NCBI GenBank assembly: GCA_963676105.1
Contig: OY781039.1
Location: 1,290,001 to 1,322,000 of the forward strand
DNA length: 32,000 nucleotides
Source: Erysipelotrichaceae bacterium
Lineage (GTDB): Bacteria; Bacillota_I; Bacilli_A; Erysipelotrichales; Erysipelotrichaceae
Direction of reading: 5' to 3'
This document shows positions 3,871 to 28,587 of the stretch, piece by piece. Within the stretch, counting starts at the first letter, position 1; each line of letters opens with the position of its first letter. Both the position numbers and the translations under genes were made by a program. The notes under the pieces were generated by a model. The model was not told where the DNA came from. It ran no database searches and saw only the letters and a list, made by a program, of their open reading frames with translations.

Positions 3871-5701
3871 ATAAATTATTCTCTGCAAACTCAATTCTTT
3901 TCTTTGCATCCATTTCAATGCCCTCACCATCCACTAAGATGACTGATCCATCTTGATAGCGTGAATCAAAGTAAATCGCATTTGGAAAAATCTCTGTCGC
4001 ATTCCATAGATATGGTGTTGGCAAATAACCTGCTTCATATATATTATAAAAACCTTGAGCACTTAAATAATTGTCGACATGTTTTTCGATGGATTTAAGA
4101 ATAATTTTGGTTTCAGATACAAAGTGCTTTGTCAGTTTTTTGATATCCTTTTCAAAAACGGTACAATCTATTTTCTGTTCTTGTTTTTGTTTACGATAGT
4201 AGTCAATCGCAGAACAGGTAATTTGAATGCTTTCATTCATAACTTTTGGATTTGCCATATACAGCGCTTCTGAATAAGAAACCACATGTACAATAGGAGG
4301 ACTATTCTTCACTTCAGGTTCAATATCATCCATCAACATGCTGACCATGGCGAGTTGTTGTTTTGCTTTTTTTTCATCAGGTGAAAAGAAATCTAAACCC
4401 GCTCGTGGTTGAAGCATCACATTAAAGTCTTTTCCTTCTAAAGGTTTAATGAGTTCTAAGATCGCACGTGCTTTGGCGATATCTGTAATGCCCCAAGTAT
4501 ATCTTGGTGTGTTCAACATCACTTGTAGGATAAAGTCTTGTACACCATGTTTCTTTGCTAAGCGTGCCGCAAGTACGGCTGATAAGATATAAGTCACATC
4601 ATCTGCCCCTCTAAAGGCAAAGTGATGTGGGGTATTAGGTTCATACGGTTTTTTTGTATCCGCGATAAAATCTAAAGCTTTAACACTTTGTTTAAGATTA
4701 GTCAGTAAGTCATTAGGACCTCTTCCATCTAATTGATTAAACCACCATAAAGACAAAGCATGCCAAGCAATATTTAAACTTCTTTCATGAACATGCGCTA
4801 AATCATCGACGTGGTTTGTGCCTGAATAGGTACGTACTAACATGGGTCGACTAGCATCATAAATCGCATCATACTCTAATTCATTTTGAATTGGAACTCC
4901 ACCACCATTAGCGCTATCACCCCAGTTTTCATTAAATCGTGATTGTGTGAGTTGTGATGATCCAATAGATAAGATATCTAGATGTTTAGACTCAGCTAAT
5001 TCTTTACACCAATCTTTAAAGTCTTCTAAAGCTTTGAGTCTTTCTTGATGATAAGGTCCTACATGAAGTCGTGTTAATGGAGAGTTCGATGTTTTTCGAT
5101 GATGTTTTAATCGTAATACTAGACTATCTTTCTTTGTCCCAAATTCTGTATAGTCTTCATTTTTGATGACTCTATAGTTTGGATCAAAAGTATCCATAAA
5201 ATCATGGGCTAAAGACATCAGCTTATGATCATACTCAGATCCCTTAATAAGTGATTCTGGTATTTCATCTTCTTCTAAATCCAGCATCCTTAAAACATCC
5301 GCCATCTCTTCAGAACCTACAAATGTAATAACACGATTATTAAATGCTTCATTTATTTTTAGACACGAATTTGGTAAACCCGCAAAATAGATTTTTTCTA
5401 ATAATCCACCATTCTCTTTAAAGATATAGTTTGCCTCACAAACTTCAATAACTGTTCTTACAGTATTTAGGGCATCCTTCTCATCTAATCGATAGGATAA
5501 ACCTAGATGGGTTATATGATGATCAATCAACCAGTTAGCTAGGTCATCTTTATTTTCGATTTCACCTAAGTGATTCGTTTTTGAGATTTGTTCATCGGCT
5601 AGAAATACAATTTGATCACAGGCATTTAACTGACTCTTTATCGCATTAATCCCTAAGGTATGCGCATCATGAATCGGTTTTAAAAGTCCATAGCGTCTCA
5701 T
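3869..5701 (-). CDS. Cobalamin (B12)-binding-domain protein with a large uncharacterised C-terminal domain
   Basis: N-terminus RRYGLLKPIHDAHTLGINAI contains the DxHxxG cobalamin-ligand loop after a beta-strand-like segment. GLSYRL and FAGLP follow at roughly the positions of the SxL and GG motifs. The remaining ~460 aa is unassigned. There is no CxxxCxxC radical-SAM motif. Its ATG overlaps the upstream stop (ATGA). Confidence 0.5.
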   Translation of the reverse strand: MRRYGLLKPIHDAHTLGINAIKSQLNACDQIVFLADEQISKTNHLGEIENKDDLANWLIDHHITHLGLSYRLDEKDALNTVRTVIEVCEANYIFKENGGLLEKIYFAGLPNSCLKINEAFNNRVITFVGSEEMADVLRMLDLEEDEIPESLIKGSEYDHKLMSLAHDFMDTFDPNYRVIKNEDYTEFGTKKDSLVLRLKHHRKTSNSPLTRLHVGPYHQERLKALEDFKDWCKELAESKHLDILSIGSSQLTQSRFNENWGDSANGGGVPIQNELEYDAIYDASRPMLVRTYSGTNHVDDLAHVHERSLNIAWHALSLWWFNQLDGRGPNDLLTNLKQSVKALDFIADTKKPYEPNTPHHFAFRGADDVTYILSAVLAARLAKKHGVQDFILQVMLNTPRYTWGITDIAKARAILELIKPLEGKDFNVMLQPRAGLDFFSPDEKKAKQQLAMVSMLMDDIEPEVKNSPPIVHVVSYSEALYMANPKVMNESIQITCSAIDYYRKQKQEQKIDCTVFEKDIKKLTKHFVSETKIILKSIEKHVDNYLSAQGFYNIYEAGYLPTPYLWNATEIFPNAIYFDSRYQDGSVILVDGEGIEMDAKKRIEFAENNL

Positions 5702-6762
5702 TTTGGGAAGTATTCTTCAAAGAAGCCTTTCACATTTTGTCGACCGATGACACTAAAATCAATATAGTAAAGTGAGTTCGCGAGTTCTAAGACTAAATCC
5801 ATATGTTTATGAGGTGTATTTGCTAATTTAGCTAACTCAAGCATGGGCACAATTCCAGTTGGAATATCTTCATAGATATATCGAGTGGTGATATCTGTTG
5901 GTGATAGTATTTCATCATATTGCGAGGTTGCTTGTAGTCTTAAATATAAGCTTTCACCTTGAGATCCATATACAATATCTAACCATTCAAATGCACTAGG
6001 AATATCTATCCCAAATGCTTTCGCAAGCGCTAATCTTTCTTCATCTAGTTTTTCAATCATATTCGCAACTAAAGGAGTAATCCCTTCTTTATAGTGATGA
6101 TAAGAATCACCACATTCAATACGGGTTAGATTCATGAGTGCTGGAAATGGATGAAACAACATGCCGATATTTGAAAAGGATGTTGTTAAAACAGAATCTT
6201 CCATTTGAATCATATTGAAACTTGGTTTTAAACAGTTATAGATAATTTCACTGTGTTTTGGATTAAGCGCTGCAACTCTTAACTTTTTCTTACGTGAAAA
6301 GATTTGTGATACACCCGGTCTAACTCTTCGTGAAGTGAGTACAAAAGTATCTGTTTCACAGATCGGGATATCTAAGTCACATCCAGCATTTACTAAGTAC
6401 TGCTTAAATAAATAAGCACCTAAAGTACGACCAGGATTAATCACAATTTTATGGTTTTCTTTAAGTAAGGGTGCCATTTGAATCGCAATATCTTCATGAG
6501 CATGGGCAGGAATACAAATCATAATAATATCTGATTGGTCTAAGGCATCTTTTAAAATATGGGTTGCACTTATATTCTTAACCATGGTTTCGATCATGCC
6601 ATGAAGTTGTACGCCTCCCATGGAATTGATTTGATCAATAACCGTTTTAGTCCGATTAAATAAAACTGTTGGATTTGAAAGATGGGCTAAATAAGCAGCC
6701 AATGCTTGGCCACCATGACCAGCCCCAATTACACAATAATTTTGTTTTATTAGACTTGTCAT
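5698..6762 (-). CDS. NAD(P)-dependent octopine/nopaline (opine) dehydrogenase family protein
   Basis: Rossmann motif VIGAGHGGQALAAYLA. The C-terminal opine-DH signature region is FSNIGMLFHPFPALMNL...YKEGITP...LDEERLALAKAFG. ATG at 6762 has AGGAGG 5 nt upstream. The ORF-track extension to 6834 is unlikely to be translated. Confidence 0.7.
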   Translation of the reverse strand: MTSLIKQNYCVIGAGHGGQALAAYLAHLSNPTVLFNRTKTVIDQINSMGGVQLHGMIETMVKNISATHILKDALDQSDIIMICIPAHAHEDIAIQMAPLLKENHKIVINPGRTLGAYLFKQYLVNAGCDLDIPICETDTFVLTSRRVRPGVSQIFSRKKKLRVAALNPKHSEIIYNCLKPSFNMIQMEDSVLTTSFSNIGMLFHPFPALMNLTRIECGDSYHHYKEGITPLVANMIEKLDEERLALAKAFGIDIPSAFEWLDIVYGSQGESLYLRLQATSQYDEILSPTDITTRYIYEDIPTGIVPMLELAKLANTPHKHMDLVLELANSLYYIDFSVIGRQNVKGFFEEYFPK

Positions 6763-12619: not shown

Positions 12620-12667
12620 ATATTTTTTACATTAAGGCAAGTGTTTTACACTTATTCTATTAAAATA

Positions 12668-12693
12668 TTTAAAAATCCAGAAAAACTGGATTT
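12668..12693 (-). terminator. Intrinsic terminator after the AlbA_2-domain gene
   Basis: The minus strand reads AAATCCAG-TTTTT-CTGGATTT followed by TTAAATATTTT. It lies immediately after the stop at 12697. Confidence 0.6.
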
Positions 12694-12696
12694 AAA

Positions 12697-14049
12697 TTAC
12701 TTCTTTTTAATTCGATAAGCTGATGTCGTCGTATGACCTATATTCTCGATTAAACCCTTATCAACTAAAGCTTTTAGTATATTACGCACTCTTCGATCTT
12801 TTACCTTTAAGACTTGAGATAAATCAGATGTACGTAAACTCTCATTAGCGCTCAGATATTTCATGACAGTTTCTTCTTGTACACTTAAATCTTCAGCATC
12901 AATTTCAATTGGATATGTTTCTTCAGTACGATAAATTTTTAAATCGACAAATTTACCTTTTTCTTCGATACTTGGACGTGTTAAACCTTTGTTTTTACAA
13001 GCACTAAGAATACGAGGCAAGCCGCTACCCCATGTTTCTATATAGTTTAATTCCTTAAGAACTCTTGCGATAACAGGATTACGTATTTCTGAACGACCTG
13101 ATGACATATCAATTGGAAATGTATCTACTAAAAACTCACCTGGAGAAACAATGTTTAACATATCATCAAACAATGCAACCTTAATATCACTTCCTCTTCG
13201 ACTGTAATCACGATGAACTATTGCGTTTAAAATGCTTTCTTTCAAAACCTCTATCGGAATTTCAAGTGTATCAATTCTTTGCATTCCACTAAAAGTTGAT
13301 GACAATTTAAGATAGTTTATGATAAAACTTTCTGTCGCATTGATTTGAGAAAACAAATCACCTTTATATTCTTTACGATCTACAAAAACTGACATATCAT
13401 TCCCTTTGAAAACAGCGCATTTCATAGTAACGTTTTCTAAAATTCCTAATAATATCAATAATCCATTAGTAGGAAATAATTGATTATTTTCTTCAGTGAT
13501 TAATTTTAGATTTATTAAATCTGATTGTTTTAAGTCCTTTCCAATTTCTTTGAATTTTAAATAGAGTGGACTTAAATCAAGATCTTCAAGAACATAATCT
13601 TTTCTTACAAGCTCATCAAAAGAAATGTGTCTTTTCTTTCTTTCTAAGTTTTGTATAGCTTCTACTCCTACTTTTCTATTACTTGAACCGATACGCATAT
13701 AAGTCCCATCTTCTTTTCCTTCAGTTTTACTGTAGTATGGATAATCCGGTCCATTCTTTACATCGACCACTAAAAGCAGTTTATTCTTAATGTTATATGT
13801 ATATAAGTCTGGAAATATATTTGGTGAACAATGATCAGCAATATGCGAAATGATACTCTCTTTTAATTCAAAAATATTTATACTATCGTCAATACCGATA
13901 ATCTTTCTATCGTTATTAACACCAATATATATTTTGCCTCCAGCCGTATTTGAAAAAGCAATAACTGTTTTATATAAGTCTTTAGTGAATTGTTCCTTAA
14001 ATTCAACAACTTTATTTTCACCAATTTCAAGTATCTGTTTTATTTCCAT
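12697..14049 (-). CDS. AlbA_2 (Schlafen-like) domain / HATPase_c_4 / C-terminal winged-helix protein (often mis-annotated as RecG-like or as a transcriptional regulator)
   Basis: N-terminal VVEFKEQF...AFSNTAGGKIYIGV (AlbA_2 signature), central ILNAIVHRDY (HATPase_c_4-like), C-terminal wHTH (RRVRNILKALVDKGLI). ATG at 14049 has GAAGGAG 6 nt upstream. The ORF-track start at 14076 is less likely. Confidence 0.65.
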   Translation of the reverse strand: MEIKQILEIGENKVVEFKEQFTKDLYKTVIAFSNTAGGKIYIGVNNDRKIIGIDDSINIFELKESIISHIADHCSPNIFPDLYTYNIKNKLLLVVDVKNGPDYPYYSKTEGKEDGTYMRIGSSNRKVGVEAIQNLERKKRHISFDELVRKDYVLEDLDLSPLYLKFKEIGKDLKQSDLINLKLITEENNQLFPTNGLLILLGILENVTMKCAVFKGNDMSVFVDRKEYKGDLFSQINATESFIINYLKLSSTFSGMQRIDTLEIPIEVLKESILNAIVHRDYSRRGSDIKVALFDDMLNIVSPGEFLVDTFPIDMSSGRSEIRNPVIARVLKELNYIETWGSGLPRILSACKNKGLTRPSIEEKGKFVDLKIYRTEETYPIEIDAEDLSVQEETVMKYLSANESLRTSDLSQVLKVKDRRVRNILKALVDKGLIENIGHTTTSAYRIKKK

Positions 14050-14060
14050 AACAACTCCTT

Positions 14061-14128
14061 CGGCACTCTTTGGCATTCTTAGGTATTCTTCGGTATTATT
14101 ATATACCTAGACTAATTTTTATAATACC
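14061..14128. repeat. Phased array of GGYAY/ATACC pentamers (four tandem 10-bp units, then two inverted copies) in the leader/promoter of the AlbA_2 gene
   Basis: Tandem decamers cggcactctt / tggcattctt / aggtattctt / cggtattatt (14061-14100), followed by ATACC at 14103 and 14124. Confidence 0.5.
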
Positions 14129-14168
14129 TATTACTCTTATTTATATTCGTGAAAACTATTTTCTCCTA

Positions 14169-14191
14169 TAAAAAAACTCCATTAGGAGTTT
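14169..14191 (-). terminator. Intrinsic terminator after the HigA-2-like gene (copy 1 of an identical 23-mer)
   Basis: The minus strand reads AAACTCC-TAAT-GGAGTTT followed by TTTTA. The plus-strand 23-mer TAAAAAAACTCCATTAGGAGTTT is identical to 15054-15076. Confidence 0.7.
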
Positions 14192-14517
14192 TAACCAATG
14201 ACTTCATGATGACTTTTTTGTTTCTTTGCTTTTTTTTCATTGTTAGGATCAATTTCTTCAAATGAATAAATCAAATTAATAATTTCAGGTTGCTTATTGA
14301 GTATATAAACAAGTTTTGCGGCCGTCCCTTTTATAGGATTATCTCCAGACTCCCACTTCTCAACTGTTTTAACACTTATCCCAAAGATACGAGCTAGTGA
14401 ACTTTGTGATACATTCAAACGTTCTCTTAGCTTTTTAACCTCGATTGGTTGAACACTATCTTCTACCGTTCTAAAAGAATAATAGGGCATTTTAAGTATA
14501 TCTTTTTTAATATTCAT
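14191..14517 (-). CDS. HTH antitoxin, HigA-2 / COG2944-like
   Basis: VKKLRERLNVSQSSLARIFGISVKTVEKWESGDNPIKGTAAKLVYIL parallels the Vibrio HigA-2 pattern (LSQSQFA...SKRTLENWEQGRR.PTGPA..LL). Its start overlaps the toxin stop by 11 nt. Confidence 0.7.
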   Translation of the reverse strand: MNIKKDILKMPYYSFRTVEDSVQPIEVKKLRERLNVSQSSLARIFGISVKTVEKWESGDNPIKGTAAKLVYILNKQPEIINLIYSFEEIDPNNEKKAKKQKSHHEVIG

Positions 14518-14950
14518 TTTTTCCTCCTTTAAAATCTAAATCAACTAGAATCTTTTTAAGAAGATTCTCTTCCAATTGTGTTAAATCACTTTTTTTATTT
14601 TTTGAGTACATATGAAATGGTAGTATGTATATTTTATTCCCTACATTCACAATAATAATTAATGCGATTACACGCAAACCATCTCTTTTAGATTGATTTC
14701 TATATGAAACATATAGTTTCTTAACGATTAGAGTATTATCGTCATTAGCCTGTAAACAACCTTTTGGATTTGTGAAATAATTAGGTTTTGATAAATCGTT
14801 CAGTACTTTTTGATATTCTTTTATACTAATATTGAATTTCTTCAGATCACGTTTTATATCAAAACCATGAATTTTAAAATAATCATAATATCTTTTAACA
14901 TTTGAACTTTCAGATAATATATCTACTACTTCTATTCGATTTATCAACAA
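14507..14950 (-). CDS. RelE-superfamily toxin, HigB-2 / COG4737-like, with a ~50-60-aa N-terminal extension
   Basis: The C-terminal half SKRDGLRVIALIII...KIYILPFHMYSKNKKSDLTQLEENLLKKIL matches the HigB-2 pattern GKRGGSRIIYY...FYLLTIYGKNEMSDL...Q...L. The only usable start is TTG at 14950. Confidence 0.55.
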   Translation of the reverse strand: MLINRIEVVDILSESSNVKRYYDYFKIHGFDIKRDLKKFNISIKEYQKVLNDLSKPNYFTNPKGCLQANDDNTLIVKKLYVSYRNQSKRDGLRVIALIIIVNVGNKIYILPFHMYSKNKKSDLTQLEENLLKKILVDLDFKGGKNEY

Positions 14951-14959
14951 ATTACCATC

Positions 14960-14976
14960 ACCCTATTTAATAGGGT
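14960..14976. promoter_or_regulatory. Palindrome ACCCTATT-T-AATAGGGT just upstream of the HigB-2-like gene (candidate TA operator)
   Basis: Perfect 17-bp palindrome, 10-26 nt upstream of the TTG start. Confidence 0.45.
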
Positions 14977-15053
14977 ATTTACATATTAATATAACTAAGT
15001 GAAATATGCAAATCTTTCTCACTTATTACTATGCTAAAAACTCATTTATTCCT

Positions 15054-15076
15054 TAAAAAAACTCCATTAGGAGTTT
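15054..15076 (-). terminator. Intrinsic terminator after the HAD hydrolase gene (copy 2 of the identical 23-mer)
   Basis: Same 23-mer TAAAAAAACTCCATTAGGAGTTT as 14169-14191. It lies directly after the HAD stop codon at 15079-15081. Confidence 0.7.
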
Positions 15077-15078
15077 AA

Positions 15079-15852
15079 TTATATCCATCCAAATTTTTTA
15101 CAAGCCTTATAAATTCCATCATCGATATTTCTTTGAGTCACATAATCTGCTTTAGCCTTTAACTCATCAACTGCATTACCCATCGCTATTGATGTCCAAC
15201 GTTTATCAAACATCACTAGATCATTGGTGTCATCACCAAAGACAACCACATCTTTTAAGTCCCCATTTAGATGTTCTATCATACTTTCAATACCACGATG
15301 TTTTTCATCATATTGAAAGATAAGATATGGTTTAACAAATCTTAAGTGACCTACTGTGTCTAATAGACTTAATTTATGTTCATCTTCAAGCGATACACTT
15401 AAATAAACTTTGTAAATCGCATCGAGCTTTTCATAGTCCAAATCTGGGTCAATAATTAATTCTGTAGGTTCTTGTCTTTCTCCTGCTTGTTGATTAAATA
15501 AGTCATTTTTCGCATAGACTTTTATTGAATCATCAAGCAAAACCATTACTCCGATATTTAAGCTTTCTGCTTCTCTTATTAATGCTTTAGCTTTCTCTAA
15601 ATCTAGTGGAATATTTTCAACAAGTTCATTATTAATAACTAATCCTCCACCACCACTACAAACCATGTTGTGAAGACCTAGTTCATCGAGTACCCAACGT
15701 GCTTTGTAATGTGCACGTCCAGTAGCGATGGCGACAAAGTGTCCATTTGCCTCTAAATCCTTTAATGTTTGTATGGCAGAGGGAACCACTTGATGTGTCT
15801 TAGTATCTGTTAGTGTTCCATCAATATCAAAGAAGAAGTATTTTTTATCCAT
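15079..15852 (-). CDS. Cof-type HAD-IIB family hydrolase (sugar-phosphatase-like)
   Basis: Motif I FFFDIDGTL, motif II ATGR, motif IV FGDDTNDLVMF. 257-aa. Confidence 0.85.
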   Translation of the reverse strand: MDKKYFFFDIDGTLTDTKTHQVVPSAIQTLKDLEANGHFVAIATGRAHYKARWVLDELGLHNMVCSGGGGLVINNELVENIPLDLEKAKALIREAESLNIGVMVLLDDSIKVYAKNDLFNQQAGERQEPTELIIDPDLDYEKLDAIYKVYLSVSLEDEHKLSLLDTVGHLRFVKPYLIFQYDEKHRGIESMIEHLNGDLKDVVVFGDDTNDLVMFDKRWTSIAMGNAVDELKAKADYVTQRNIDDGIYKACKKFGWI

Positions 15853-16065
15853 AATCTTGTCCTTTTACAACATAAATTCTAGCATCATTCATATGAAACA
15901 TTTTTCCAATATATTTTTGAAATCATATTTCAAAGAAAATTTAAAAATAACATGTAAATTTACTAAGACTATATATAATTCCTATAACTTGATACGCAAC
16001 AATCAAGTTATAAGTGTATAAGGAAAACCATCCATTTCTCCTTGGACATATTTAACACACTAACG

Positions 16066-16104
16066 AAAAGAGATAGATCCCTTCAGCAAGGCTCTATCTC
16101 TTTT
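16066..16104 (-). terminator. Hairpin terminator after AAA+/DUF4143 gene 2 (repeat copy A)
   Basis: 12-bp perfect stem AAAAGAGATAGA / TCTATCTCTTTT. Part of a 48-nt segment (16060-16107) repeated at 17669-17715. Confidence 0.6.
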
Positions 16105-16121
16105 CATATATATGATTAGTC

Positions 16122-17564
16122 TTAATTGTTCTTGATAAGCATTTTTTCAGCATGACCTAATAGATAAAGGAAGGCAAAGGCTGGAATTCTAATTAAGTCT
16201 TTCCCATTCTTATTATGATGGGCACCATAATCTTCTTTATTCTTAGTCACAACAAAAGAAGTTTCTGCATCATTACTTAGCAGTGATATGGCATCATCAT
16301 CAGAGATGCTTGCATGTTCTCGATATTTAACTTCAATAAGAACATTTTTAGAATTTGGGTTTTCTACGACTATATCAACTTCCTTTTGAGTTCTGTCACC
16401 TCTAAAATAACCTACTGAAGTTGATTTTTGATAATAGTATGAGACAACATGCTTATACACAGTTGTTTCAATTAATTTCCCCATTTCTATTGGGTTTGTA
16501 TATAGTGAGTCATCCATTAAAACTGCACTTAATATTGCTGGATCAGCAATGTAGATTTTTGGACTAGCTTTAAGTACTTTTTTACCACTAAGTTCGATTG
16601 GCCAACTTTGATAAATTAAATTAGCACTTTCTAAGTATTTAATATAGTTTTCAACCGTTGGTCTAGTGACACCTTGTAACTCTTTTGAAATAAGATCAAT
16701 GGATACAACCGATGAAGATACAGTACAAAGATATAAGAATATGCGTTCTAATTCAGTACTATTTCTAATGGGATATATGGATGGTAAATCACGTTTAATT
16801 ACTTTATCAACGACATCTTCTCTTAAAATTTGTTGCGTATATAAATTATTATCCGACATAACAAGTTCTGGAAAACCACCGACTTGTAAATATCGTACTA
16901 AATGGTTTTGTAGATTTGATAATTTGTTTACTATTAATGTTAATTCTTGATGTGACTTCTTAGACCATAATGAAATATTCTCGTTAAACTCTAATTGTGG
17001 TTTTTCAAGTCCTATAAACTCACAATATTCATAGAATGAAAGTGTTGGAACTTGTAAAACTGTCCATCGTCCACTTCCACTTTCTTGACTTCCTTTTATT
17101 AAGATTGGACTTGCAGACCCTGTCGCAACCACATGTGTTTCAACTCTTGTGTCATAAATTGTTTTTAACCACAGATCCCTATCTTTTGCATATTGTATTT
17201 CATCAAAGAATATATATATATCGTCATTAGGGTAAATATTCTCTTTGTAGCAATCTAAAATATCTCCAATTGTGCTCAGTTTAAGCATTGGATGATCCAT
17301 CGAGATATAGATTATCTTTTTAGCATCCACTTCCTTTAGAAGCATATCAATCATTTGAAATAGTATTGTAGTTTTCCCAACTCTACGTGTTCCAGATAAA
17401 ACAACAGCTCTTCTAATCGATTTGTTTTGCATTCGCTTAACTGCTTCATAATAAGCAAAACGCTTATAAGATTTTAAAAACATTGGATTCACTTCTTTTG
17501 TGTTCCACCATTGATTATATGAAAGCAGAACTTTTAAAAGAGACTCATTATTAATAATCGACAT
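16122..17564 (-). CDS. AAA+ ATPase with C-terminal DUF4143 / PD-(D/E)xK-like domain (COG1373-type)
   Basis: Walker A GTRRVGKTT, Walker B IFFDEIQ. The C-terminal segment KEVDIVVE...VLIEVKY fits a D...ExK nuclease-fold motif. SD GAGGT lies 5 nt upstream of the ATG. Confidence 0.75.
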   Translation of the reverse strand: MSIINNESLLKVLLSYNQWWNTKEVNPMFLKSYKRFAYYEAVKRMQNKSIRRAVVLSGTRRVGKTTILFQMIDMLLKEVDAKKIIYISMDHPMLKLSTIGDILDCYKENIYPNDDIYIFFDEIQYAKDRDLWLKTIYDTRVETHVVATGSASPILIKGSQESGSGRWTVLQVPTLSFYEYCEFIGLEKPQLEFNENISLWSKKSHQELTLIVNKLSNLQNHLVRYLQVGGFPELVMSDNNLYTQQILREDVVDKVIKRDLPSIYPIRNSTELERIFLYLCTVSSSVVSIDLISKELQGVTRPTVENYIKYLESANLIYQSWPIELSGKKVLKASPKIYIADPAILSAVLMDDSLYTNPIEMGKLIETTVYKHVVSYYYQKSTSVGYFRGDRTQKEVDIVVENPNSKNVLIEVKYREHASISDDDAISLLSNDAETSFVVTKNKEDYGAHHNKNGKDLIRIPAFAFLYLLGHAEKMLIKNN

Positions 17565-17577
17565 ACTTTACCTCATG

Positions 17578-17640
17578 CATTTATTATAAATATATTTATA
17601 ATATTTGTAAACATTTATTATAAATATATTTATAATATTT
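17578..17640. repeat. Two tandem 29-bp direct repeats (period 34 bp), each containing a 22-bp AT palindrome, overlapping the promoter of AAA+/DUF4143 gene 2
   Basis: catttattataaatatatttataatattt occurs at 17578-17606 and again at 17612-17640. The internal palindrome is TATTATAAATATATTTATAATA. Confidence 0.85.
17583..17611 (-). promoter_or_regulatory. Sigma-70-type promoter of AAA+/DUF4143 gene 2 (TTTACA-17-TATAAT)
   Basis: The minus strand reads TTTACA (17606-17611), a 17-nt spacer, then TATAAT (17583-17588), about 19 nt upstream of the ATG. The -35 is formed by the junction between the two repeats. Confidence 0.5.
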
Positions 17641-17674
17641 CCATCATCGATGATCCCATATTTTTATCCTAACG

Positions 17675-17712
17675 AAAGAGATAGATCCCTTTAGCAAAGT
17701 TCTATCTCTTTT
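17675..17712 (-). terminator. Hairpin (repeat copy B), near-identical to the terminator at 16066-16104
   Basis: Stem AAAGAGATAGA / TCTATCTCTTT. The segment 17669-17715 differs from 16060-16107 by one indel and three substitutions. Confidence 0.55.
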
Positions 17713-17791
17713 CATTATCATCAATATTAAAATAATATTAATAACTTAATTATGAAAACTTAGAAATGAAAATACTTTCTATTTTTCAAAC

Positions 17792-17910
17792 TTTCCACTA
17801 GATTTTAGTCGAAAAATCGAATTTTTTATAATTTCCACTAGATTCTAGATGAAAGTTAAATTTTTCATTCTTTCCACATATCTGGGAAGAATCACAATTT
17901 TTTTTAAATA
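17792..17910. repeat. Three degenerate tandem repeats of 39-40 bp, each starting TTTCCAC and containing AATTTTT
   Basis: TTTCCACTAGATT occurs at 17792 and 17832, and TTTCCACATATCT at 17871. Units 1 and 2 are about three-quarters identical. They lie in a 572-bp non-coding gap. Confidence 0.7.
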
Positions 17911-17956
17911 TATCCCAAATATTAGGAAATATTACTAATTTTTTATACTTAATACT

Positions 17957-17977
17957 AAAAAAGACTCCGAGGAGTCT
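17957..17977 (-). terminator. Intrinsic terminator belonging to the alcohol-dehydrogenase gene relic
   Basis: The minus strand reads AGACTC-CTCG-GAGTCT followed by TTTTTT. It differs by one loop base from the terminator of the intact adh gene at 19535-19555. Confidence 0.6.
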
Positions 17978-18124
17978 AATAAACACATTCTGTAAATTGA
18001 TTTGACATCCCCTTGTTTTAAGTCATATGTCCATAGTTTTTATCATCATCACATGCTAACGCGCAATTTCAGGAATATGAGTCTCATCGATATCAATCGC
18101 TGTCAAAGTTCTTGCATCCTGCTC
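17977..18124 (-). pseudogene. Relic of the last ~50 codons of an iron-containing alcohol dehydrogenase paralogue
   Basis: My translation gives EQDARTLTAIDIDETHIPEIAR*, then after a frame change KLWTYDLKQGDVKSIYRMCLL. The intact neighbour ends ELQLPGTLSAIEIDDTNFKDMAL...KGLMTLDEGDVEAIYRMCL*. The relic contains an in-frame TAG, a frameshift and a mutated stop codon. Confidence 0.65.
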
Positions 18125-18136
18125 TTTATTCATTCT

Positions 18137-19405
18137 TTAGTTTTTTAAACAAGCGATGGGGACAATATATATTCCATCCTCTCTTTTGTAAGCATATTCT
18201 GTCGCTGTGATAATCATCATGAAAGCAGGTAGATTCATCGTATCTGTATCAATCTTATCTCTCAACTTTATAAGATTTTTAGCTGATTCGTCTATTCTTT
18301 CTTGATTTCCTAGTTTAATTTCTATAAGCGCGTAATTTCCATCTCTTAATTGAATAACTGCATCTGCTTCCAAGTTTGTCTTATCTCTGTAATGGTAGAG
18401 TTTACCCCCAATAGTTTCGACGTAAATATTTAAATCACGGATGCAAAGATTTTCAAAAAGAAATCCAAATGTTTTCATATCTTTAAATAATCCGCTTGGA
18501 CCAACATTTAATGCTGCAGCCGCAATAGAAGGATCTGTAAAATATCTTTTATCAGTCGTTCTTATCGCTGTCTTTGATCTTAAATTAACATTCCAAGCTG
18601 GTAGATCTTCTAGTAAAAAGATGCGTTTAAATGCTTTTATATAGTCATAAATTGTATTCTCATGTAAACGGGTGTTTTCATTTTGCGAAGAATCTTCTAA
18701 TAATGTTTTTAAAGGTATCATGCTTCCAATATTTCGTGCATAAGATTTGATTAATCTTTGTGCTATTTGCCTATCTCTATTCTTGCCATCTATCGTAATG
18801 ATCTCACTATCTATAACACCATCAAGATAATCATAGGCGTGTTTTAATGCGATTTTGGGTGCATCTTCAATAGAACTCGGCCAGCCACCTCTACAAATCA
18901 AATAAGCCATTTGTTCGACAGTGACATTAGATTTCGCCTTAATATCGCAATTGCCATTAAACAATTCACCTAGCGAAATATCTCCACTTGAATCCATCGA
19001 TTCAAACAATGACATTGTCCTCATTTTTAAATGTACAATTCGTCCAATCCCACTATGCGAATCATCATCTTTTTCTATGGAGTTCGAGCCCGTTAAGATG
19101 AATTGACCGTATTCACCTCTCTCATCGACTACAAATCTGACTGTATCCCATAAATTAGGCGCTAGTTGCCATTCATCAATCAGTCGAGGTGTTTCACCTT
19201 CAAGTAATAATTTTGGCATGATTGTTGCCAATTCCAAATTCTGTTTTCGAGTTGTTGGGTCCTGCAAATAAAGAATGCTTTTAGCATGTTGCTTAGCAGT
19301 CGTCGTTTTTCCACACCACTTTAAGCCCTCGATAATCACTGCCCCTTTAGATGCCAGCGCTTCTTCTATTTGCTTATCTGCAAGTCTTTTCTTATATGAT
19401 TTCAT
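18137..19405 (-). CDS. AAA+ ATPase with C-terminal DUF4143 / PD-(D/E)xK-like domain (second, divergent paralogue)
   Basis: Walker A GLKWCGKTT, Walker B RLIDEWQ. The C-terminal segment EADAVIQLRDGNYALIEIKLG fits D...ExK. No Shine-Dalgarno is present upstream. Confidence 0.75.
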   Translation of the reverse strand: MKSYKKRLADKQIEEALASKGAVIIEGLKWCGKTTTAKQHAKSILYLQDPTTRKQNLELATIMPKLLLEGETPRLIDEWQLAPNLWDTVRFVVDERGEYGQFILTGSNSIEKDDDSHSGIGRIVHLKMRTMSLFESMDSSGDISLGELFNGNCDIKAKSNVTVEQMAYLICRGGWPSSIEDAPKIALKHAYDYLDGVIDSEIITIDGKNRDRQIAQRLIKSYARNIGSMIPLKTLLEDSSQNENTRLHENTIYDYIKAFKRIFLLEDLPAWNVNLRSKTAIRTTDKRYFTDPSIAAAALNVGPSGLFKDMKTFGFLFENLCIRDLNIYVETIGGKLYHYRDKTNLEADAVIQLRDGNYALIEIKLGNQERIDESAKNLIKLRDKIDTDTMNLPAFMMIITATEYAYKREDGIYIVPIACLKN

Positions 19406-19411
19406 ATATTT

Positions 19412-19440
19412 ATATTAATTTAAACTATGATCAATTTCAA
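19412..19440 (-). promoter_or_regulatory. Promoter TTGAAA-17-TAATAT positioned to start transcription at the ATG of AAA+/DUF4143 gene 1 (candidate leaderless mRNA)
   Basis: On the minus strand, TTGAAA is at 19435-19440 and TAATAT at 19412-19417. The hexamer ends 7 nt before the A of the ATG (19405). No SD is present. Confidence 0.4.
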
Positions 19441-19450
19441 TCTAAATATA

Positions 19451-19509
19451 GCAGTTGGACGTTTTTTAATGTGGTAGTTGGACAATTTTTGATGTGGCAG
19501 TTGGCTGCC
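19451..19509. repeat. 2.5 tandem copies of a 23-bp repeat upstream of the promoter of AAA+/DUF4143 gene 1
   Basis: gcagttggacgttttttaatgtg / gtagttggacaatttttgatgtg / gcagttggctgcc. Confidence 0.8.
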
Positions 19510-19534
19510 TTGATCTTAAAAAAAAGAATTCATC

Positions 19535-19555
19535 AAAAAAGACTCCGAAGAGTCT
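19535..19555 (-). terminator. Intrinsic terminator of the alcohol dehydrogenase gene
   Basis: The minus strand reads AGACTC-TTCG-GAGTCT followed by TTTTTT, directly after the stop codon. Confidence 0.65.
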
Positions 19556-20718
19556 TACAAACACATTCTATAAATTGCTTCGACATCACCTTCATCAAGA
19601 GTCATTAAACCTTTAATCTGTTTACCCTTGACTGCTTTAAGTGCCATGTCTTTAAAGTTTGTATCATCAATTTCAATCGCTGATAGTGTACCAGGTAACT
19701 GAAGTTCTATTTCGAAGAAATCAGCCAACTTTTGAATACCTGCTTTTGCAGTTAACATATCGTCACCTTTGTCTTCGACCCCAAAGACATTCATCGCAAA
19801 GCGTTTGAAACGATGAACATTTTCTTCACTTAAGACATAGTTCATCCACTTAGGTGTTAGGATTGCTAAACCTAGACCATGCGCAATATCATAATAGGCT
19901 GATAATTGATGTTCCATAGAATGGCATGACCAGGAAGTGGTTTTACCAACTCTAGTAAAACCATTTAAAGCCCAAGTACTTGCCCACATAAGATTTGCTC
20001 TTGCGTCGTAGTTTTCTGGATCATCAATCGCGATTGGGCCATACTTCACAATGGTACGCATAATCCCTTCTTGTATCTCATCCATCATATCCATGTATTC
20101 TAAAGAAAAATATTGTTCAAGTTGATGTGACATCATATCTGCTGCACCTGAAGCTGTTTGAAACTTAGATACTGTATAGGTATTCTCAGGATTTAAAAAT
20201 GAAGCTTTTGGTAGAAGAATTGGATGTCCTCCACCCCGTTTCTCATTTGTGCCTAGATTTGTAAGCACACCACCATTATTCATTTCTGTACCGGTTGCGC
20301 TTAACGTTAAAATCGTTACTATAGGTAAGGCTTTCTTAAAGTCTGTACCACCAATCCAGTGATCCCAGATGGATCCTTCTACAAAGGTACCTCCTGCCAT
20401 AGCTTTAGTCGCATCAATTGTGCTACCTCCACCAATAGGGAGTAAGACATCAATATCGTTCTCTTTAATATAAGCAATCGCTTTATCAACTGTTTCATAG
20501 CGTGGATTTGGTTCAATACCCCCAAACTCAAACCATTCTAAGCCAGCATCATCTAACTCTTTAACAACTTTATCAAATAAGCCAATCCGTTTAATCGTTC
20601 CACCACCATAGGTAATGAGAACTTTTGATCCATGTTGTTTTAGTTCATTGGCTAGATTCTTTAACTGATCTTTACCAAAGTAAATCTTTGTTGTATTTTG
20701 AAATATAAAATCGTTCAT
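19555..20718 (-). CDS. Iron-containing (group III) alcohol dehydrogenase, butanol-dehydrogenase/YqhD-like
   Basis: 387-aa. GGGSTIDATKAMA nucleotide/iron-ADH signature, and conserved His-rich metal region (HQLE..., HSMEHQLS, AHG). Confidence 0.85.
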   Translation of the reverse strand: MNDFIFQNTTKIYFGKDQLKNLANELKQHGSKVLITYGGGTIKRIGLFDKVVKELDDAGLEWFEFGGIEPNPRYETVDKAIAYIKENDIDVLLPIGGGSTIDATKAMAGGTFVEGSIWDHWIGGTDFKKALPIVTILTLSATGTEMNNGGVLTNLGTNEKRGGGHPILLPKASFLNPENTYTVSKFQTASGAADMMSHQLEQYFSLEYMDMMDEIQEGIMRTIVKYGPIAIDDPENYDARANLMWASTWALNGFTRVGKTTSWSCHSMEHQLSAYYDIAHGLGLAILTPKWMNYVLSEENVHRFKRFAMNVFGVEDKGDDMLTAKAGIQKLADFFEIELQLPGTLSAIEIDDTNFKDMALKAVKGKQIKGLMTLDEGDVEAIYRMCL

Positions 20719-20779: not shown

Positions 20780-21403
20780 CTATGCTAATAATTTATTCAT
20801 GGGTTCATCAAAGTTATGAACCATAAACTGTATCGTATTACCCATTAGTAATACGGCAATAAGTGTTCCAAGTCCAATCCCAATAATTGAACCTGTAAAT
20901 ACTAATGATGTCACAACAGTTAGAGTTACAAAAGACGCATCGAATATTATCTTAACTCTACCAAATTTAACTTTGAATACATCACTCATGGTTTTAACAG
21001 CACCATCAACTGGATTTAAAATTAAGTCACTCTTAACCGCTAAGAAGACACCTGATGCGATAATAAGTATCGCTGTTAATAAAGTGATTAATCCTGTAAC
21101 TAATGTCGTCGCATGAATGGTTAAATTATTGTTGATAAAATCAAGTACCCATCCAAATACAATTGAGAATGGAATTTGTAAGATAATCTTCATATCTGCC
21201 TTACGTACAAGCACTAGTTGAACAAGTACTAAAGCTAAATACATGATCATTGATGCATTACCTAAAGATATTCCTGTTATTTGATTAATCGCAAATGGAA
21301 AGGAAGCAACTGCCGCAACCCCTAATCCACTACGTGTATTTAATACGATACCAAATGCTAATATCAGCATTCCTACTACATATACAATAATTCTCTTTGT
21401 CAT
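20780..21403 (-). CDS. YczE-like integral membrane protein
   Basis: 207-aa, about six TM segments. N-terminus MTKRIIVYVVGMLILAFGIVLNTRSGLGV is typical of YczE/DUF6198-type proteins. Confidence 0.6.
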   Translation of the reverse strand: MTKRIIVYVVGMLILAFGIVLNTRSGLGVAAVASFPFAINQITGISLGNASMIMYLALVLVQLVLVRKADMKIILQIPFSIVFGWVLDFINNNLTIHATTLVTGLITLLTAILIIASGVFLAVKSDLILNPVDGAVKTMSDVFKVKFGRVKIIFDASFVTLTVVTSLVFTGSIIGIGLGTLIAVLLMGNTIQFMVHNFDEPMNKLLA

Positions 21404-25332: not shown

Positions 25333-25380
25333 TTAAAATGCTTAATGCTATATACTCTGCATGAAAAGTTATTGATTCTA

Positions 25381-25414
25381 ATTAAAAATCCACGGTTTTA
25401 ATACCGTGGATTTT
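25381..25414 (-). terminator. Intrinsic terminator after the Abi gene
   Basis: AAAATCCACGGT-N6-ACCGTGGATTTT, a 12-bp stem. The T-run follows on the minus strand. Confidence 0.65.
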
Positions 25415-25490
25415 CACCCAGCATACACTGGATATCTCGTAGCTATAATATATCACCATGGACAATTATTTTCAATCGATTTGAGAAATA

Positions 25491-26474
25491 TTAGTATTTA
25501 TTGTAATTAATATTTTTCTTGTTTTTGGTAGCCAGATACTCTAAGTCATTTAAATCTCTTATACCCATATTTGAACGCACATAATCAAATGATGTAATAT
25601 TTAATTCATTTTGCAAATTAATTAGGTTTGACCTCAACTGAAGAACTAATTTTTCATAATCATTTGAATTCATAAAGTACTTCAAAGAAACTAACAAATC
25701 TACTAATTGCTGTTGTGGATTGTATTTAAAATAACGTCTATCTCCTAAAATATATTCTTTGAATGGTTGTTTGAATCGAGGAGATTTGGATTTAAAAAAA
25801 ATTACTCTCTCATTATGTGCGCACGAGTTTCTAACTTTTCTAATTAGATGCAACATTGATAGTAAAAGTGAGTAATAATTTTTACCTCTTTTATCTTTTA
25901 TATTATATAACTCACACAATGCATCCAATAATTGTGGTTTCGATATCTCTACTACACTTATTAAATCCCCAAATGTTATTAATTTTGTAAATATCCACGC
26001 TGGTACTCTTCCATACTTTTTTGAATAATGAAAATTATACTCATTTGTTGACTTATCAATTGTATGAAAACACTTTGAAATTACTCTAATAATATCTTGA
26101 GTATCCTTATTGGAATTATAAGCTTGAACATCATACCATTCAACCTCTTTAGGATTAATGAAATCTAATTTATACCCAACCAAATTTCTAATTTCCTCTT
26201 CTATTCTTGTAATAACTTGCAAAAGTATAATTCTCAAATCATCATCAAATAGTTTTAAACTTACAAAAGATTCGATAGTAATACCACCAATATAAATATG
26301 ATCATTATTTAAATCTTTTCCTTGTATAAATGGCTCTTTGTATGCATTTATTAAATTAAAATAACCATACTTGATAAGAAATTCTTTATGCTTACTGCCT
26401 TCACATCTTATTTTTTTCTTATCTCTAAGATACTTCATTTGTGTATTGAAAGTTTTAAATGGTTTTTCATTCAT
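25491..26474 (-). CDS. Abi_2 (AbiD/AbiF-like) abortive-infection family protein
   Basis: 327-aa. Conserved KVRNSCAHNERV motif (RNxxAHxxR) and the overall AbiD/F-like helical pattern. Confidence 0.7.
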   Translation of the reverse strand: MNEKPFKTFNTQMKYLRDKKKIRCEGSKHKEFLIKYGYFNLINAYKEPFIQGKDLNNDHIYIGGITIESFVSLKLFDDDLRIILLQVITRIEEEIRNLVGYKLDFINPKEVEWYDVQAYNSNKDTQDIIRVISKCFHTIDKSTNEYNFHYSKKYGRVPAWIFTKLITFGDLISVVEISKPQLLDALCELYNIKDKRGKNYYSLLLSMLHLIRKVRNSCAHNERVIFFKSKSPRFKQPFKEYILGDRRYFKYNPQQQLVDLLVSLKYFMNSNDYEKLVLQLRSNLINLQNELNITSFDYVRSNMGIRDLNDLEYLATKNKKNINYNKY

Positions 26475-26524
26475 ACTGCGCCACCCTTATATATTATTTA
26501 TATACACTAAATTATGAAAGTCCG

Positions 26525-26555
26525 TAAAAAAGAATGGCACTTTCGCACCATTCTT
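26525..26555 (-). terminator. Intrinsic terminator after the lipoprotein gene relic
   Basis: The minus strand reads AAGAATGGTGC-GAAA-GTGCCATTCTT followed by TTTTAC. Confidence 0.6.
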
Positions 26556-26568
26556 CATTTACTATTAA

Positions 26569-27222
26569 TTATTCCCAAAGATTAGCATTACCATAACGTG
26601 CATCAAGTTCTGCTGAGAACCAACGACCATTCATAACGTTAGAGATAACAAATTCTTTTAATCCATCAGGAATTGTAGTATCTGCATCCATCGCATCCAT
26701 GATTGCTTCATAAGATGTAGTATCATCCATTAATTCAACAATCGCAGATGTATCATCTGAATCAAATACCATTGATACAGTATTATCTACAGTGAATGCA
26801 TCCCAAGTAGCAAGTTCACCACCATTTGGATCACCTGTATCATTCAGAAGTGTTCCAAAAACAGATAAATCTATTTCATCTTTTTCAATCAAATGACTTA
26901 AGTCCTATAACTCATTATTATCAATTAATGTTGAATAAAAGCCACCCGACAACAACATCACATCGAAATACTCATCATATGTCTGTGATGGAAAGTTAAC
27001 AATCTCAACTTCTACATGAGGATATCTATTCTGAAAACTCTTAACAACTTCATTTAATATAGTTTCTTCTTCCCCTGAATCTACCTTTATATGATCATAG
27101 ACATCAAAGTCATAGTTCTTCTCAAAGTTATCAGTATTAATAACATTTTGACTACATCCACTCAATAACAAAAAACTTAGGATGACTGATATCTTGATTG
27201 TTCTATGACCTATCAATTTCAT
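26569..27222 (-). pseudogene. Lipoprotein with a solute-binding-protein-like N-terminus, split by one in-frame TAG (26905-26907)
   Basis: Lipobox LLLSGC. KSFQNRYPHVEVEIVNFPSQTYDEYFDVMLLSGG resembles the N-terminus of ABC substrate-binding proteins. The two ORF-track pieces are in the same frame: ...DNNEL*DLSHLIEKDE.... The total of ~217 codons is too short for a full binding protein. Confidence 0.5.
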
Positions 27223-27264: not shown

Positions 27265-28452
27265 TTATCTACTTTTATCGAAATTGACATCCAACCATAA
27301 TTGCAATTCATTACGATTTTTTATGCCATTTTTTATTAATATCTCAATAATATCTTTCCCTGAAACTATAATGATTGGTAACTTTTCGTTGACTACTTCT
27401 TTATATGCATCAGCATTAACATATGAAGTGGTAACCATAATACCAAATTCTCTGTGTTGGATTCTTGAGACTAGTCTTGACATAATCTTTACATCAACAC
27501 TTGAAGAAGTTTTAGGATGAAAATATTTTGCTTCAACAACAAATGTTTTCTCAATATTATTCTTTGAATTTCCAATTCTATAGGTTCCTATTGCATCTTT
27601 ACCATGATCCTTAAAATAACTAGTACCTTCTATATCTATAATATTTTGATCCATGAACAAAACAATTTGAATTGCGCATTTTTCAAATGCGTACCCATCA
27701 TTAAAATATTCAGCTAATAAAAGCAACATTTTGCCTTCTTCAGTATTAAAATCTGGAATTTGTTCTATTTTTGATCTATGAAGAATTGGATTCTTTTCTG
27801 TAATTAGGGGAGAATATTTCCCTTTATTAATCCATTCTAACCAAACTTTAGGTGCATGTTCACTTGTATTCGCATGTCCAATTAAAACATCGTTCAACCA
27901 TTCACGAGGTATTTGTGGGATATCTAAAATTGTAAAAATAGATTTGTAATTTTGATATCGCCCTTCTGAGTTTTGTGCCCAAACAATCTCTAAAGTTTCA
28001 TTAATGTTAATGTTTTTAGATCCTAAAACTGCTAATCCTAAGAACATAATATCTCGACCGGCATACTTTTTAAAAATAAAAACTGGTGGTATATTTTCTC
28101 GTTTACCATTCATTAGTTTTTCAAATGAATCTGATAAAAAAGTGTTTCCTTTAAATTTCGTGTTATGTATAGGGTTCCCAGCAGTTCTATTGTCTCCCCA
28201 ATAAGTAAAAGTTCCTAAGGTTCTGTCAATTTCATCGCGCCATTCTAGCTCTTCACCACTTGTATAAATGCATATATAAGCAAAACCAGGTTTTTTAACA
28301 TTATATTTTTTCTTCCGAAAGCCTCCTGAATTTTGAACTCCAAGAAGTTTTGTCAAAACTTCACCACTTATATTCTTTGAATCATTTGAACAATATACTG
28401 CATCAACAATCAAATCTGTATCAGTAAGTTTGCTAAAATCTACTCTATGCAT
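27265..28452 (-). CDS. Restriction endonuclease: C-terminal Mrr-like PD-(D/E)xK domain plus an N-terminal DNA-reader domain (possibly SRA/PUA-like)
   Basis: The C-terminal segment GKDAIGTYRIG...FVVEAKYF fits D...EAK, followed by GIMVTTS (Mrr_cat-like). ATG at 28452 has GGGGGAA 5 nt upstream, so it is preferred over 28482. The gene is divergent from a C5-MTase gene. Confidence 0.65.
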   Translation of the reverse strand: MHRVDFSKLTDTDLIVDAVYCSNDSKNISGEVLTKLLGVQNSGGFRKKKYNVKKPGFAYICIYTSGEELEWRDEIDRTLGTFTYWGDNRTAGNPIHNTKFKGNTFLSDSFEKLMNGKRENIPPVFIFKKYAGRDIMFLGLAVLGSKNININETLEIVWAQNSEGRYQNYKSIFTILDIPQIPREWLNDVLIGHANTSEHAPKVWLEWINKGKYSPLITEKNPILHRSKIEQIPDFNTEEGKMLLLLAEYFNDGYAFEKCAIQIVLFMDQNIIDIEGTSYFKDHGKDAIGTYRIGNSKNNIEKTFVVEAKYFHPKTSSSVDVKIMSRLVSRIQHREFGIMVTTSYVNADAYKEVVNEKLPIIIVSGKDIIEILIKNGIKNRNELQLWLDVNFDKSR

Positions 28453-28546
28453 TGTAGTTCCCCCAATTTTATAAGTAAGCATGTTTCATTTTTTAATAAA
28501 ATATTTATATACAAGATATAACTGTATTTTTTATTGATAATTAAAG

Positions 28547-28566: not shown

Positions 28567-28587
28567 TTAAACAAATAATTCTAATAT
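28559..28587 (+). promoter_or_regulatory. MTase promoter TTGATA-17-TAATAT, placed for a leaderless or near-leaderless transcript
   Basis: The -10 ends 8 nt before the A of the ATG at 28595. No Shine-Dalgarno lies between them. Confidence 0.4.

Follow-up and report, generated by a model that had tools for sequence, protein, structure and literature searches.

How genes enter defence islands and hotspots is an open question, and most of these regions have no visible mobility genes. We examined a 32-kb stretch of a gut Erysipelotrichaceae genome (hereafter the window; positions given without the name of another locus are those of the window), in which an unusually clean signature of gene entry is repeated: a cassette consisting of a promoter and an open reading frame (ORF), followed by a second copy of the terminator of the neighbouring gene. 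All the cassette genes are on the minus strand, between an alcohol dehydrogenase gene (adh) and a gene with an AlbA_2 domain. We propose that the cassettes were inserted behind the terminator of the preceding gene and that this duplicated the terminator-bearing target segment, on the pattern of 'insertion with long target duplication'. We consider the chances for and against this proposal to be about equal.

Three cassettes lie between duplicated terminators

We found three pairs of direct repeats that contain a terminator, and each pair encloses one cassette: T3 and T3' enclose the gene for a first ATPase (ATPase-1), T2 and T2' that for a second (ATPase-2), and T1 and T1' a toxin–antitoxin (TA)-like gene pair. 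The conserved left anchor of the locus is adh (19555-20718), which encodes an iron-containing alcohol dehydrogenase (Pfam Fe-ADH and ADH_Fe_C). The right anchor has AlbA_2, HATPase_c_4 and wHTH domains (Pfam; 12697-14076). Reading from adh, the left copy of the first repeat comprises the functional adh tail (~135 nt) and the T3 hairpin and T-run (19535-19690, with T3 itself at 19535-19556). It is followed by the ATPase-1 cassette (18137-19534), which has its own upstream region and an ORF (18137-19405) and lacks a terminator of its own. The right copy is a non-coding relic of the adh 3' tail with the T3' hairpin and T-run (17957-18128). Next come an orphaned adh-to-ATPase intergenic region (17777-17956), which includes the 40-bp repeats (17781-17860), and T2' (17669-17718), a strong terminator hairpin of -19.4 kcal/mol. 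The ATPase-2 cassette (16112-17668) consists of a promoter region and an ORF (16122-17564), and its right-hand terminator T2 (16060-16111; -24.4 kcal/mol) runs into the conserved region upstream of a gene for a Cof-type HAD-family phosphatase (Pfam Hydrolase_3; 15079-15852), a conserved gene within the hotspot. T1 (15037-15076) starts at the HAD stop codon. Behind it lie the two-gene TA-like cassette with its own upstream region (14192-15036) and T1' (14152-14191), which is continuous with the AlbA_2 leader.

In the repeat search, T3' and T3 match over 58 nt at 88% identity (17957-18014 versus 19535-19592), with an additional adh-tail match (18081-18102 versus 19661-19682); by local alignment, the adh relic reaches about 155 nt of the adh coding tail. 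T2 and T2' match over 41 nt at 93% (16067-16107 versus 17675-17715), or ~52 nt by local alignment. T1' and T1 match over their whole 40 nt at 85%, and the copies do not differ over the 23 nt of hairpin and T-run. These pairs are the top three direct-repeat families in the whole window. All six copies fold into a stem-loop followed by a T-run (-8.5 to -24.4 kcal/mol), and T3 and T3' are among the terminator-like sites of a consensus scan. The initial annotation, made from the sequence without database searches, had described three cassettes each enclosed by a different duplicated terminator with no recombinase in sight. Both points held, as exactly three such pairs were found and Pfam scans of the ORFs in the 32 kb (every ORF of ≥90 aa and several below that length) detected no integrase, transposase or resolvase. 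Scans of the window for tRNA genes and Rfam families gave no matches.

For the window and 122 related loci (1.69 Mb), each intergenic gap, extended by 60 nt per side, was compared to the three gaps that follow it, which gave 3917 gap pairs. Only 24 of the 3917 pairs scored 50 or higher. The three pairs of the window scored 81, 75 and 63, and thus three of the 24 sit inside 7 kb. The remaining high-scoring pairs mostly show the same bracketing in sister species. Other high scorers have ordinary explanations: a tRNA attachment (att) site (L068), tRNA paralogues (L121), tandem adh paralogues (L007) and paralogous gene starts. In the 1.69 Mb, neither the T1 nor the T2 core is found outside its two positions in the window. 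The T3 core marks the adh 3' end of each related locus, and its only other occurrences are local duplicates of these ends. The dispersed terminator family that the initial annotation had raised as a counter-explanation is therefore not seen in this sequence. As far as the window and the 1.69 Mb show, the bracketing repeats are real, beyond chance and not members of a dispersed family.

The bracket recurs at other terminators in related genomes

The relatives available for comparison are other species, namely Erysipelotrichaceae metagenome-assembled genomes (MAGs) and Logan contigs, whose adh is 73-78% identical to that of the window. An exact-protein look-up of adh gave no record, a genome-contig scan gave only other species (adh ≤77%), and a metagenome scan with the HAD phosphatase gave nothing closer than 67%. 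What lies between adh and the following conserved gene differs in every relative compared. In L025, adh is followed by a 404-aa ATPase gene, a PDC-S30 gene, a TA-like pair, HAD and AlbA_2, and in L001 by a 404-aa ATPase gene, an IS30-family element (IS, insertion sequence), a PDC-S30 gene and HAD. L026 has a 404-aa ATPase gene and then a LytS/LytTR system, L035 has a 405-aa ATPase gene and then Mga and phosphotransferase system (PTS) genes, and L036 has no ATPase gene after adh.

The empty sites carry single terminators. L001, L025 and L035 have one T3 copy in the region from adh to the following intergenic sequence, and T3 is single in L036 as well. A single T1 lies between HAD and AlbA_2 in L025, which represents the empty site of the TA-like cassette. 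In L001, a single T2 homologue stands directly before the HAD upstream region (window 16015-16106 matches L001 15007-15094, the terminator preceding HAD).

The same bracketing is found around other genes. The site between the terminator of the DUF6198 gene (20780-21403 in the window, upstream of adh) and adh is uninterrupted in the window, L001 and L035. In L026-L031, a RhuM gene (PDC-S05) lies at this site, flanked by 39-45-nt copies, 97% identical, in which the final codons of DUF6198 are followed by the terminator and CTTAGG. The ATPase genes after adh in L026-L029 (404 aa) and L035 (405 aa) have a second copy of TGTTTATAA plus T3 behind them (28-29 nt, 96-97%), and the second copy in L035 is adjoined by about 30 nt of decayed adh tail. 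In an unrelated context (L138 and L139), a gene of the ATPase-2 family lies between ~76-nt repeats of a different terminator, the stems of which differ by a compensatory A-T to C-G change. Counting these, the bracket recurs at at least five different target sequences and terminators. The two copies of the T1, T2 and RhuM repeats are closer to each other than to the orthologous terminators in sister species, as expected of a duplication made in place. The repeats are derived from the target and are single at empty sites. Every repeat includes the hairpin, from which it extends by 0-155 nt in the upstream and 0-48 nt in the downstream direction, and no recombinase was found in the window. The initial annotation had suggested a common acquisition route directly 3' of genes, and the recurrence of the signature with other cassettes and terminators in sister genomes supports this suggestion.

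A phage-like contig from a gut metagenome (L083) has DUF4406 and crAss001_48-like genes between repeats of a gene tail and a GC-rich terminator (5187-5303 and 5790-5908), a case of this signature in the setting of a phage 'moron'. At several junctions the T-run is followed by (C)TTAGG(A), a motif found at 10/117 terminator-like sites in the clade versus 18/1609 elsewhere; most matches are orthologues or duplicates, and we regard the motif as a weak lead only.

The mobile unit appears to be a promoter with an ORF

L123 possesses an ATPase-2 orthologue (86% identical) with the same promoter. There, a T3-type hairpin follows the stop codon, and then the AlbA_2 leader and gene, whereas in the window ATPase-2 is followed by T2. 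This difference shows that the 3' terminator copy comes with the target site and not with the cassette. ATPase-1 has a C-terminus native for its family, and the adh relic begins directly past its stop codon. Together with the site-dependent terminator of ATPase-2, this indicates that the mobile unit is a promoter plus an ORF. In L025 the homologous TA-like pair (amino-acid identities of 57% and 68%) precedes HAD and has different flanks, with the local T2 on its 3' side where the window pair has T1'.

The C-terminus of the window ATPase-2 (MLIKNN) is non-native, as the family C-terminus is NGYKG... The last 21 nt of the gene align with the L123 post-stop sequence (TTATCAA..TAAGACTC) and are likely to be a vestige of an earlier T3-type context. 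This probable vestige of a T3-type 3' flank, at 16118-16138, reads TTATCAAGAACAATTAAGACT and aligns with TTATCAATAGTCTAAGACTC after the L123 stop codon. Upstream of T2', no significant relic of a PDC-S30 gene was detected.

The last ~17 nt of T1 are similar to the target (TAGGAGAAAAT) and also to the homologous L025 cassette at its 5' end (TATAGGAAAAAT), as expected after a microhomology-guided switch. The sequence TAGGARAAAT is present at the 5' end of the TA-like cassette and again just after T1. The HAD phosphatase beside this junction is 94% identical in amino-acid sequence to that of L025 and 76% to that of L001. We also observed that T3 in L123 (1499-1650) and T1 in L025 (15766-15800) and the window abut the same AlbA_2-leader sequence, CTTAGGAGAAA; the synteny blocks thus break exactly at the end of the T-run.

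The upstream regions of both ATPase genes contain repeated units. In the ATPase-2 promoter, 29 nt are perfectly repeated in tandem (17578-17640; L123 counterpart 1-56). Promoters of related ATPase-2-family genes in distant contexts (L132, L138 and L124) have similar AT-rich boxes of the TGTAAAGTATAC type, indicating that the gene moves together with its upstream region. Between T3 and the ATPase-1 start there are three direct units of ~23 nt (19445-19510), GCCAACTGCCACATCAAAAATT, GTCCAACTACCACATTAAAAAAC and GTCCAACTGCTATATTTAG, which have an operator-like look.

The adh relic and exchange between lineages

The T3/T3' pair has a more complex history. The coding tail of the relic is 82% identical to the adh tail of L035 and only 62% to the window's own adh tail, while the functional adh tail is closest to that of L025 (75%). 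Window 17777-18111 aligns with L035 11028-11365 at 80% over 339 nt, a segment that in L035 leads from the adh tail through T3 and the intergenic region to the start of the 405-aa ATPase gene. As the relic, T3' and 17777-17956 are collinear with the adh-T3-intergenic regions of L035, L025 and L001, the stretch 17777-17956 with its 40-bp repeats is the promoter/operator region left behind by a lost ATPase gene. The 40-bp repeats, which the initial annotation had listed as a part of the array, are thus present, but they belong to this orphaned intergenic region.

The adh gene itself is a mosaic: nt 841-1020 are 90-92% identical to L025, and the rest of the gene is 63-80% identical. Similarly, the 404-aa and 405-aa ATPases are only 56% identical as proteins, yet their genes have 3' ends of 93-95% identity. 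The near-identical end covers the last ~110-130 nt (L035 12477-12607 versus L025, L026 and L001) and is adjoined by a palindrome and a T-run. This shared end marks a recombination boundary within the 3' end of the gene. On the evidence of the mosaic adh and of these shared ends around diverged proteins, homologous exchange among diverged lineages is frequent at this locus. In L026, the 269 nt from the ATPase stop codon to the second T3 copy (4628-4895) can be read as a C-terminal fragment of a protein, …DENDKVMEYSMSYPPEDKNKYTFTVRNNQASNTQN*, which points to a further layer of gene loss in the hotspot. No significant relic of an AlbA_2 leader was detected after the second T3 copy of L026.

How the cassettes may have been inserted

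A cassette of promoter and ORF, without a terminator of its own, would land directly behind the intrinsic terminator of the preceding gene. The insertion would duplicate a target segment made of the hairpin and T-run, the 0-155 nt of upstream gene tail and the 0-48 nt downstream, so that the upstream gene and the new cassette each end in a working terminator. As the most likely route we infer break-repair by the host, or template switching, at the hairpin. A strand copied past the terminator would switch to foreign DNA at a short microhomology such as TAGGARAAAT, and would then re-enter upstream of the hairpin and copy it a second time. Selection would favour outcomes that leave both genes a terminator. 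Later homologous exchange between related lineages would reshuffle the flanks, which would explain the allelic adh relic and the mosaic adh.

Several observations weigh against insertion with target duplication. The TA-like pair in L025 and the 404-aa ATPase genes in L025 and L001 have no flanking duplication, and no flanking repeats were found at the ATPase-1 homologues of L037-L042, at the ATPase-2 homologues of L124-L131 and L132-L137, or in Holdemania (L140-L147). With these four homologue contexts lacking repeats, we rejected the idea that the bracket is a constant property of the ATPase families. The initial annotation had named the same genes without flanking duplications in related genomes as evidence against its proposal. 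Such unflanked homologues do exist for some cassettes. Next, T3 and T3' are not a simple duplication in situ. A relic closer to L035 than to the resident adh needs either a donor-derived copy or a later allelic replacement, and the mosaic adh makes the latter plausible, though it does not prove it. Either ATPase-1 came on a donor fragment that brought its own adh tail and T3 and became attached within the resident adh by an illegitimate junction, or one side of a true duplication was overwritten afterwards. Furthermore, the comparison is one between species, none of the insertions seen is a fresh one with 100% identical copies beside an isogenic empty site, and the uniqueness of the repeats applies to the window and the 1.69 Mb of related loci. 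The template-switch step is an inference only.

Alternatively, the copies might be alleles from two lineages, brought together by additive recombination between diverged relatives, either as homology-facilitated illegitimate recombination or as a single crossover of the Campbell type. An incoming piece with tail, terminator and cassette would recombine homologously at one end, in the conserved gene, and illegitimately at the other, upstream of the resident terminator, leaving the tail and terminator of the resident gene in place as a second copy. We think this explanation possible but the less probable one. It accounts well for the adh end, where the relic, T3' and the intergenic region are collinear with and closest to L035, the functional adh tail is closest to L025, and the adh mosaic and the shared ATPase 3' ends show that exchange is common; the homology-facilitated option of the initial annotation therefore fits the adh relic well. 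The loci L025 and L001, with adh, T3 and an ATPase gene and no second copy, look like suitable donors. However, such recombination merely moves the origin of the order of tail, terminator and cassette one step back. It also leaves unexplained why ATPase-2 has T2 in one genome and T3 in another, and why the copies of the T1, T2 and RhuM repeats are mutually closest. The Campbell route additionally requires circular intermediates that already contain the target sequence.

An enzyme acting in trans on terminator hairpins, such as an IS1630-like IS30 transposase, an integron-type integrase or an HUH/Y1 transposase, is in our view unlikely. A hairpin is indeed present in every repeat, and the IS30-family element inside the L001 locus (12628-13841; HTH_38 and rve, split ORFs) has made a target duplication of ~18 nt (AATATATAATTAAnCTAA) when compared with the empty site of L025, which is unusually long for the IS30 family and within the range reported for IS1630. 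Yet no gene for such an enzyme is present in the 32 kb, and nothing ties the L001 element to the cassettes: no resemblance to its ends was found in the window sequence, and the cassettes have no terminal inverted repeats beyond the hairpins themselves. On the last two grounds we also rejected a non-autonomous transposon. The repeats vary from 28 to ~210 nt and reach into non-palindromic coding tails, the five distinct repeat sequences have no common core, and the hairpins already exist at the empty sites, unlike the ends of IS200/IS605 elements or attC sites. These features speak against the hairpin-specific integrase or HUH transposase that the initial annotation had also put forward. A coincidence of common terminator families or independently arisen hairpins is effectively refuted on present data, since, although A-tract/stem/T-tract terminators are generally alike and the T1 and T3 stems have an ACTC/GAGT core in common, the copies share sequence outside the hairpin (adh codons and stop, DUF6198 codons, CGTTAG and stretches after the T-run), their cores have only the few occurrences given above, and so high a concentration of scoring gap pairs is found in these 7 kb.

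Intrinsic terminators might serve as general landing pads for cassette acquisition without a recombinase. This might proceed through repair or template switching provoked by the hairpin in the host, or through the ATPase-PD-(D/E)XK nucleases that the cassettes encode, in which case PDC-S01 genes would be self-inserting selfish elements, and the terminator would be copied automatically. We consider so general a role rather improbable. If true, captured defence genes would arrive insulated and ready for expression, which would amount functionally to an integron without an integrase. The enzymology that suggests itself is hairpin breakage, template switching or a cassette-encoded nuclease.

Relation to known systems

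The initial annotation knew of no described mechanism that matches. This was partly wrong, since the pattern is on record for restriction-modification (RM) genes under the name 'insertion with long target duplication' (Nobusato et al. 2000, as cited by Furuta, Abe and Kobayashi 2010, PMC2853133), with a mechanism given as unknown. The RM insertions, found mostly in competent species, lack mobility genes and are flanked by unique repeats of >30 bp, of which the empty site has one copy. The repeats measure 46-420 bp, and the 46-bp repeats in H. influenzae overlap the last 2-15 bp of the upstream gene (PMC2853133). The present locus resembles these cases in its defence-type genes, in the lack of an integrase or transposase, and in long, variable repeats over the upstream 3' end. 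The repeats exceed 30 bp in the window pairs, L026 (39-45 nt) and L138 (~76 nt), and two sister cases have 28-29 nt with a degraded extension; the target is single-copy at the empty site (in other species), and no gene for mobility was found within the insert or beside it. The genes carried here, PDC-S01, RhuM and a TA-like pair, are not of the RM type, so we file the locus as a variant of long target duplication and not as a strict member. It also differs in that every repeat is centred on an intrinsic terminator, whereas the word 'terminator' has 0 occurrences in PMC2853133, in that three events are stacked in one 7-kb array, and in that one cassette is seen with different site-derived terminators in two genomes. 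The 25-year-old observation on RM genes is thereby extended to PDC-S01, TA and RhuM genes and tied to the intrinsic terminator. If the signature is general, computational searches for it could date and map gene gain in hotspots.

IS1630-type elements of the IS30 family in Mycoplasma are described as duplicating inverted-repeat targets of variable length and sequence, with duplications of 16-26 bp. Only the duplicated inverted-repeat target is in common with our locus, as IS1630 has a transposase and terminal inverted repeats and the cassettes have neither. Integrons and clusters of attC sites lacking integron-integrases (CALINs) are similar in being arrays of compact cassettes with a single function, TA cassettes included, with a hairpin behind each and, in CALINs, no adjacent integrase. 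Here, however, the hairpins are the terminators of the target, they have no conserved core, the cassettes have their own promoter regions, and the terminator of the neighbour is present twice instead of a cassette-specific attC. In the IS200/IS605 (HUH) group, the hairpins are owned by the element and the target is not duplicated, whereas our hairpins pre-exist, the target is duplicated and no TnpA is encoded in the window.

Cis-mobilizable and integrative conjugative elements (CIME/ICE) in streptococci and pseudo-staphylococcal cassette chromosome (pseudo-SCC) elements at rlmH accrete in tandem at an att site in a gene 3' end, with one att sequence and a dedicated recombinase. The series of adh-T3, ATPase-1, relic-T3' and lost ATPase resembles such successive elements sharing a target 3' end, some of which lack a recombinase. 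Three unrelated repeat sequences at three neighbouring genes within 7 kb, with no recombinase in the window, do not agree with this model. In transformable bacteria, homology-facilitated illegitimate recombination traps foreign DNA by means of a homologous anchor in a conserved gene and an illegitimate junction, and is usually described with deletion of recipient DNA. It fits the allelic adh relic and the mosaic adh, and differs by the duplicates retained here.

Candidate defence genes in the cassettes

Both ATPases have AAA_14 and DUF4143 domains (Pfam) and were assigned to PDC-S01 by PADLOC (ATPase-1, E = 4e-61; ATPase-2, E = 1e-63), although they are only 25% identical to each other. The nearest database relative of ATPase-1 is 59% identical, and the 404-aa ATPase of sister species matches PDC-S01 with E = 5e-121. 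PDC-S01 is among the commonest candidate defence genes and encodes an ATPase fused to a PD-(D/E)XK-superfamily domain, the activity of which has not been validated (PMC12988326). The TA-like pair consists of a 147-aa ORF (14507-14950) and a gene for an MqsA-like helix-turn-helix (HTH) protein (14191-14517; Pfam). The former has no assignable family, and the latter scores under the curated cut-off; 'TA' is therefore an architectural label only. No relatives with solved structures were found for ATPase-2 or the 147-aa protein. A phage origin of the cassettes was rejected, since neither the T1 and T2 cores nor the 147-aa protein had a match in viral contigs and the ATPases had no PHROG match. The cargo is thus best described as candidate defence genes: PDC-S01 ATPases, the TA-like pair and, in sister species, the PDC-S05 RhuM gene. 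We regard the stretch from adh to AlbA_2 as a hotspot in which candidate anti-phage genes turn over fast.

Other features of the window

The AlbA_2 gene probably starts at ATG 14048 rather than at 14076. Its leader contains four tandem 10-nt units, (A/G)T(A/G)CC(G/T/A)AAGA, at 14055-14097, which run into the ribosome-binding site GGAG. As the units are conserved in two other genomes (L025 15860-15905 and L123 1600-1645), the leader may be regulatory or protein-binding. The gene is followed by T4 (12670-12696), a terminator hairpin recognized by reading the sequence and single-copy in the repeat search, and then, in the minus-strand order, by two small genes and a two-component system.

The wider region is a defence island, as the window additionally contains an Abi_2 gene, an AspBHI/Mrr-type endonuclease, a C5 methylase and a Gp49/HTH pair. 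The Gp49/HTH addiction-module pair is located at 3136-3751, and the AspBHI-N/Mrr_cat endonuclease gene adjoins a divergent C5 cytosine methylase gene at 27265-30265. The Abi_2 gene (25491-26474) and a small ORF lie in a block (25380-26835) that is 92% identical to the sister MAG L001 (4403-5553), against only about 75% for the core genes. This excess of identity indicates that the Abi_2 block is another defence cassette and was exchanged recently.

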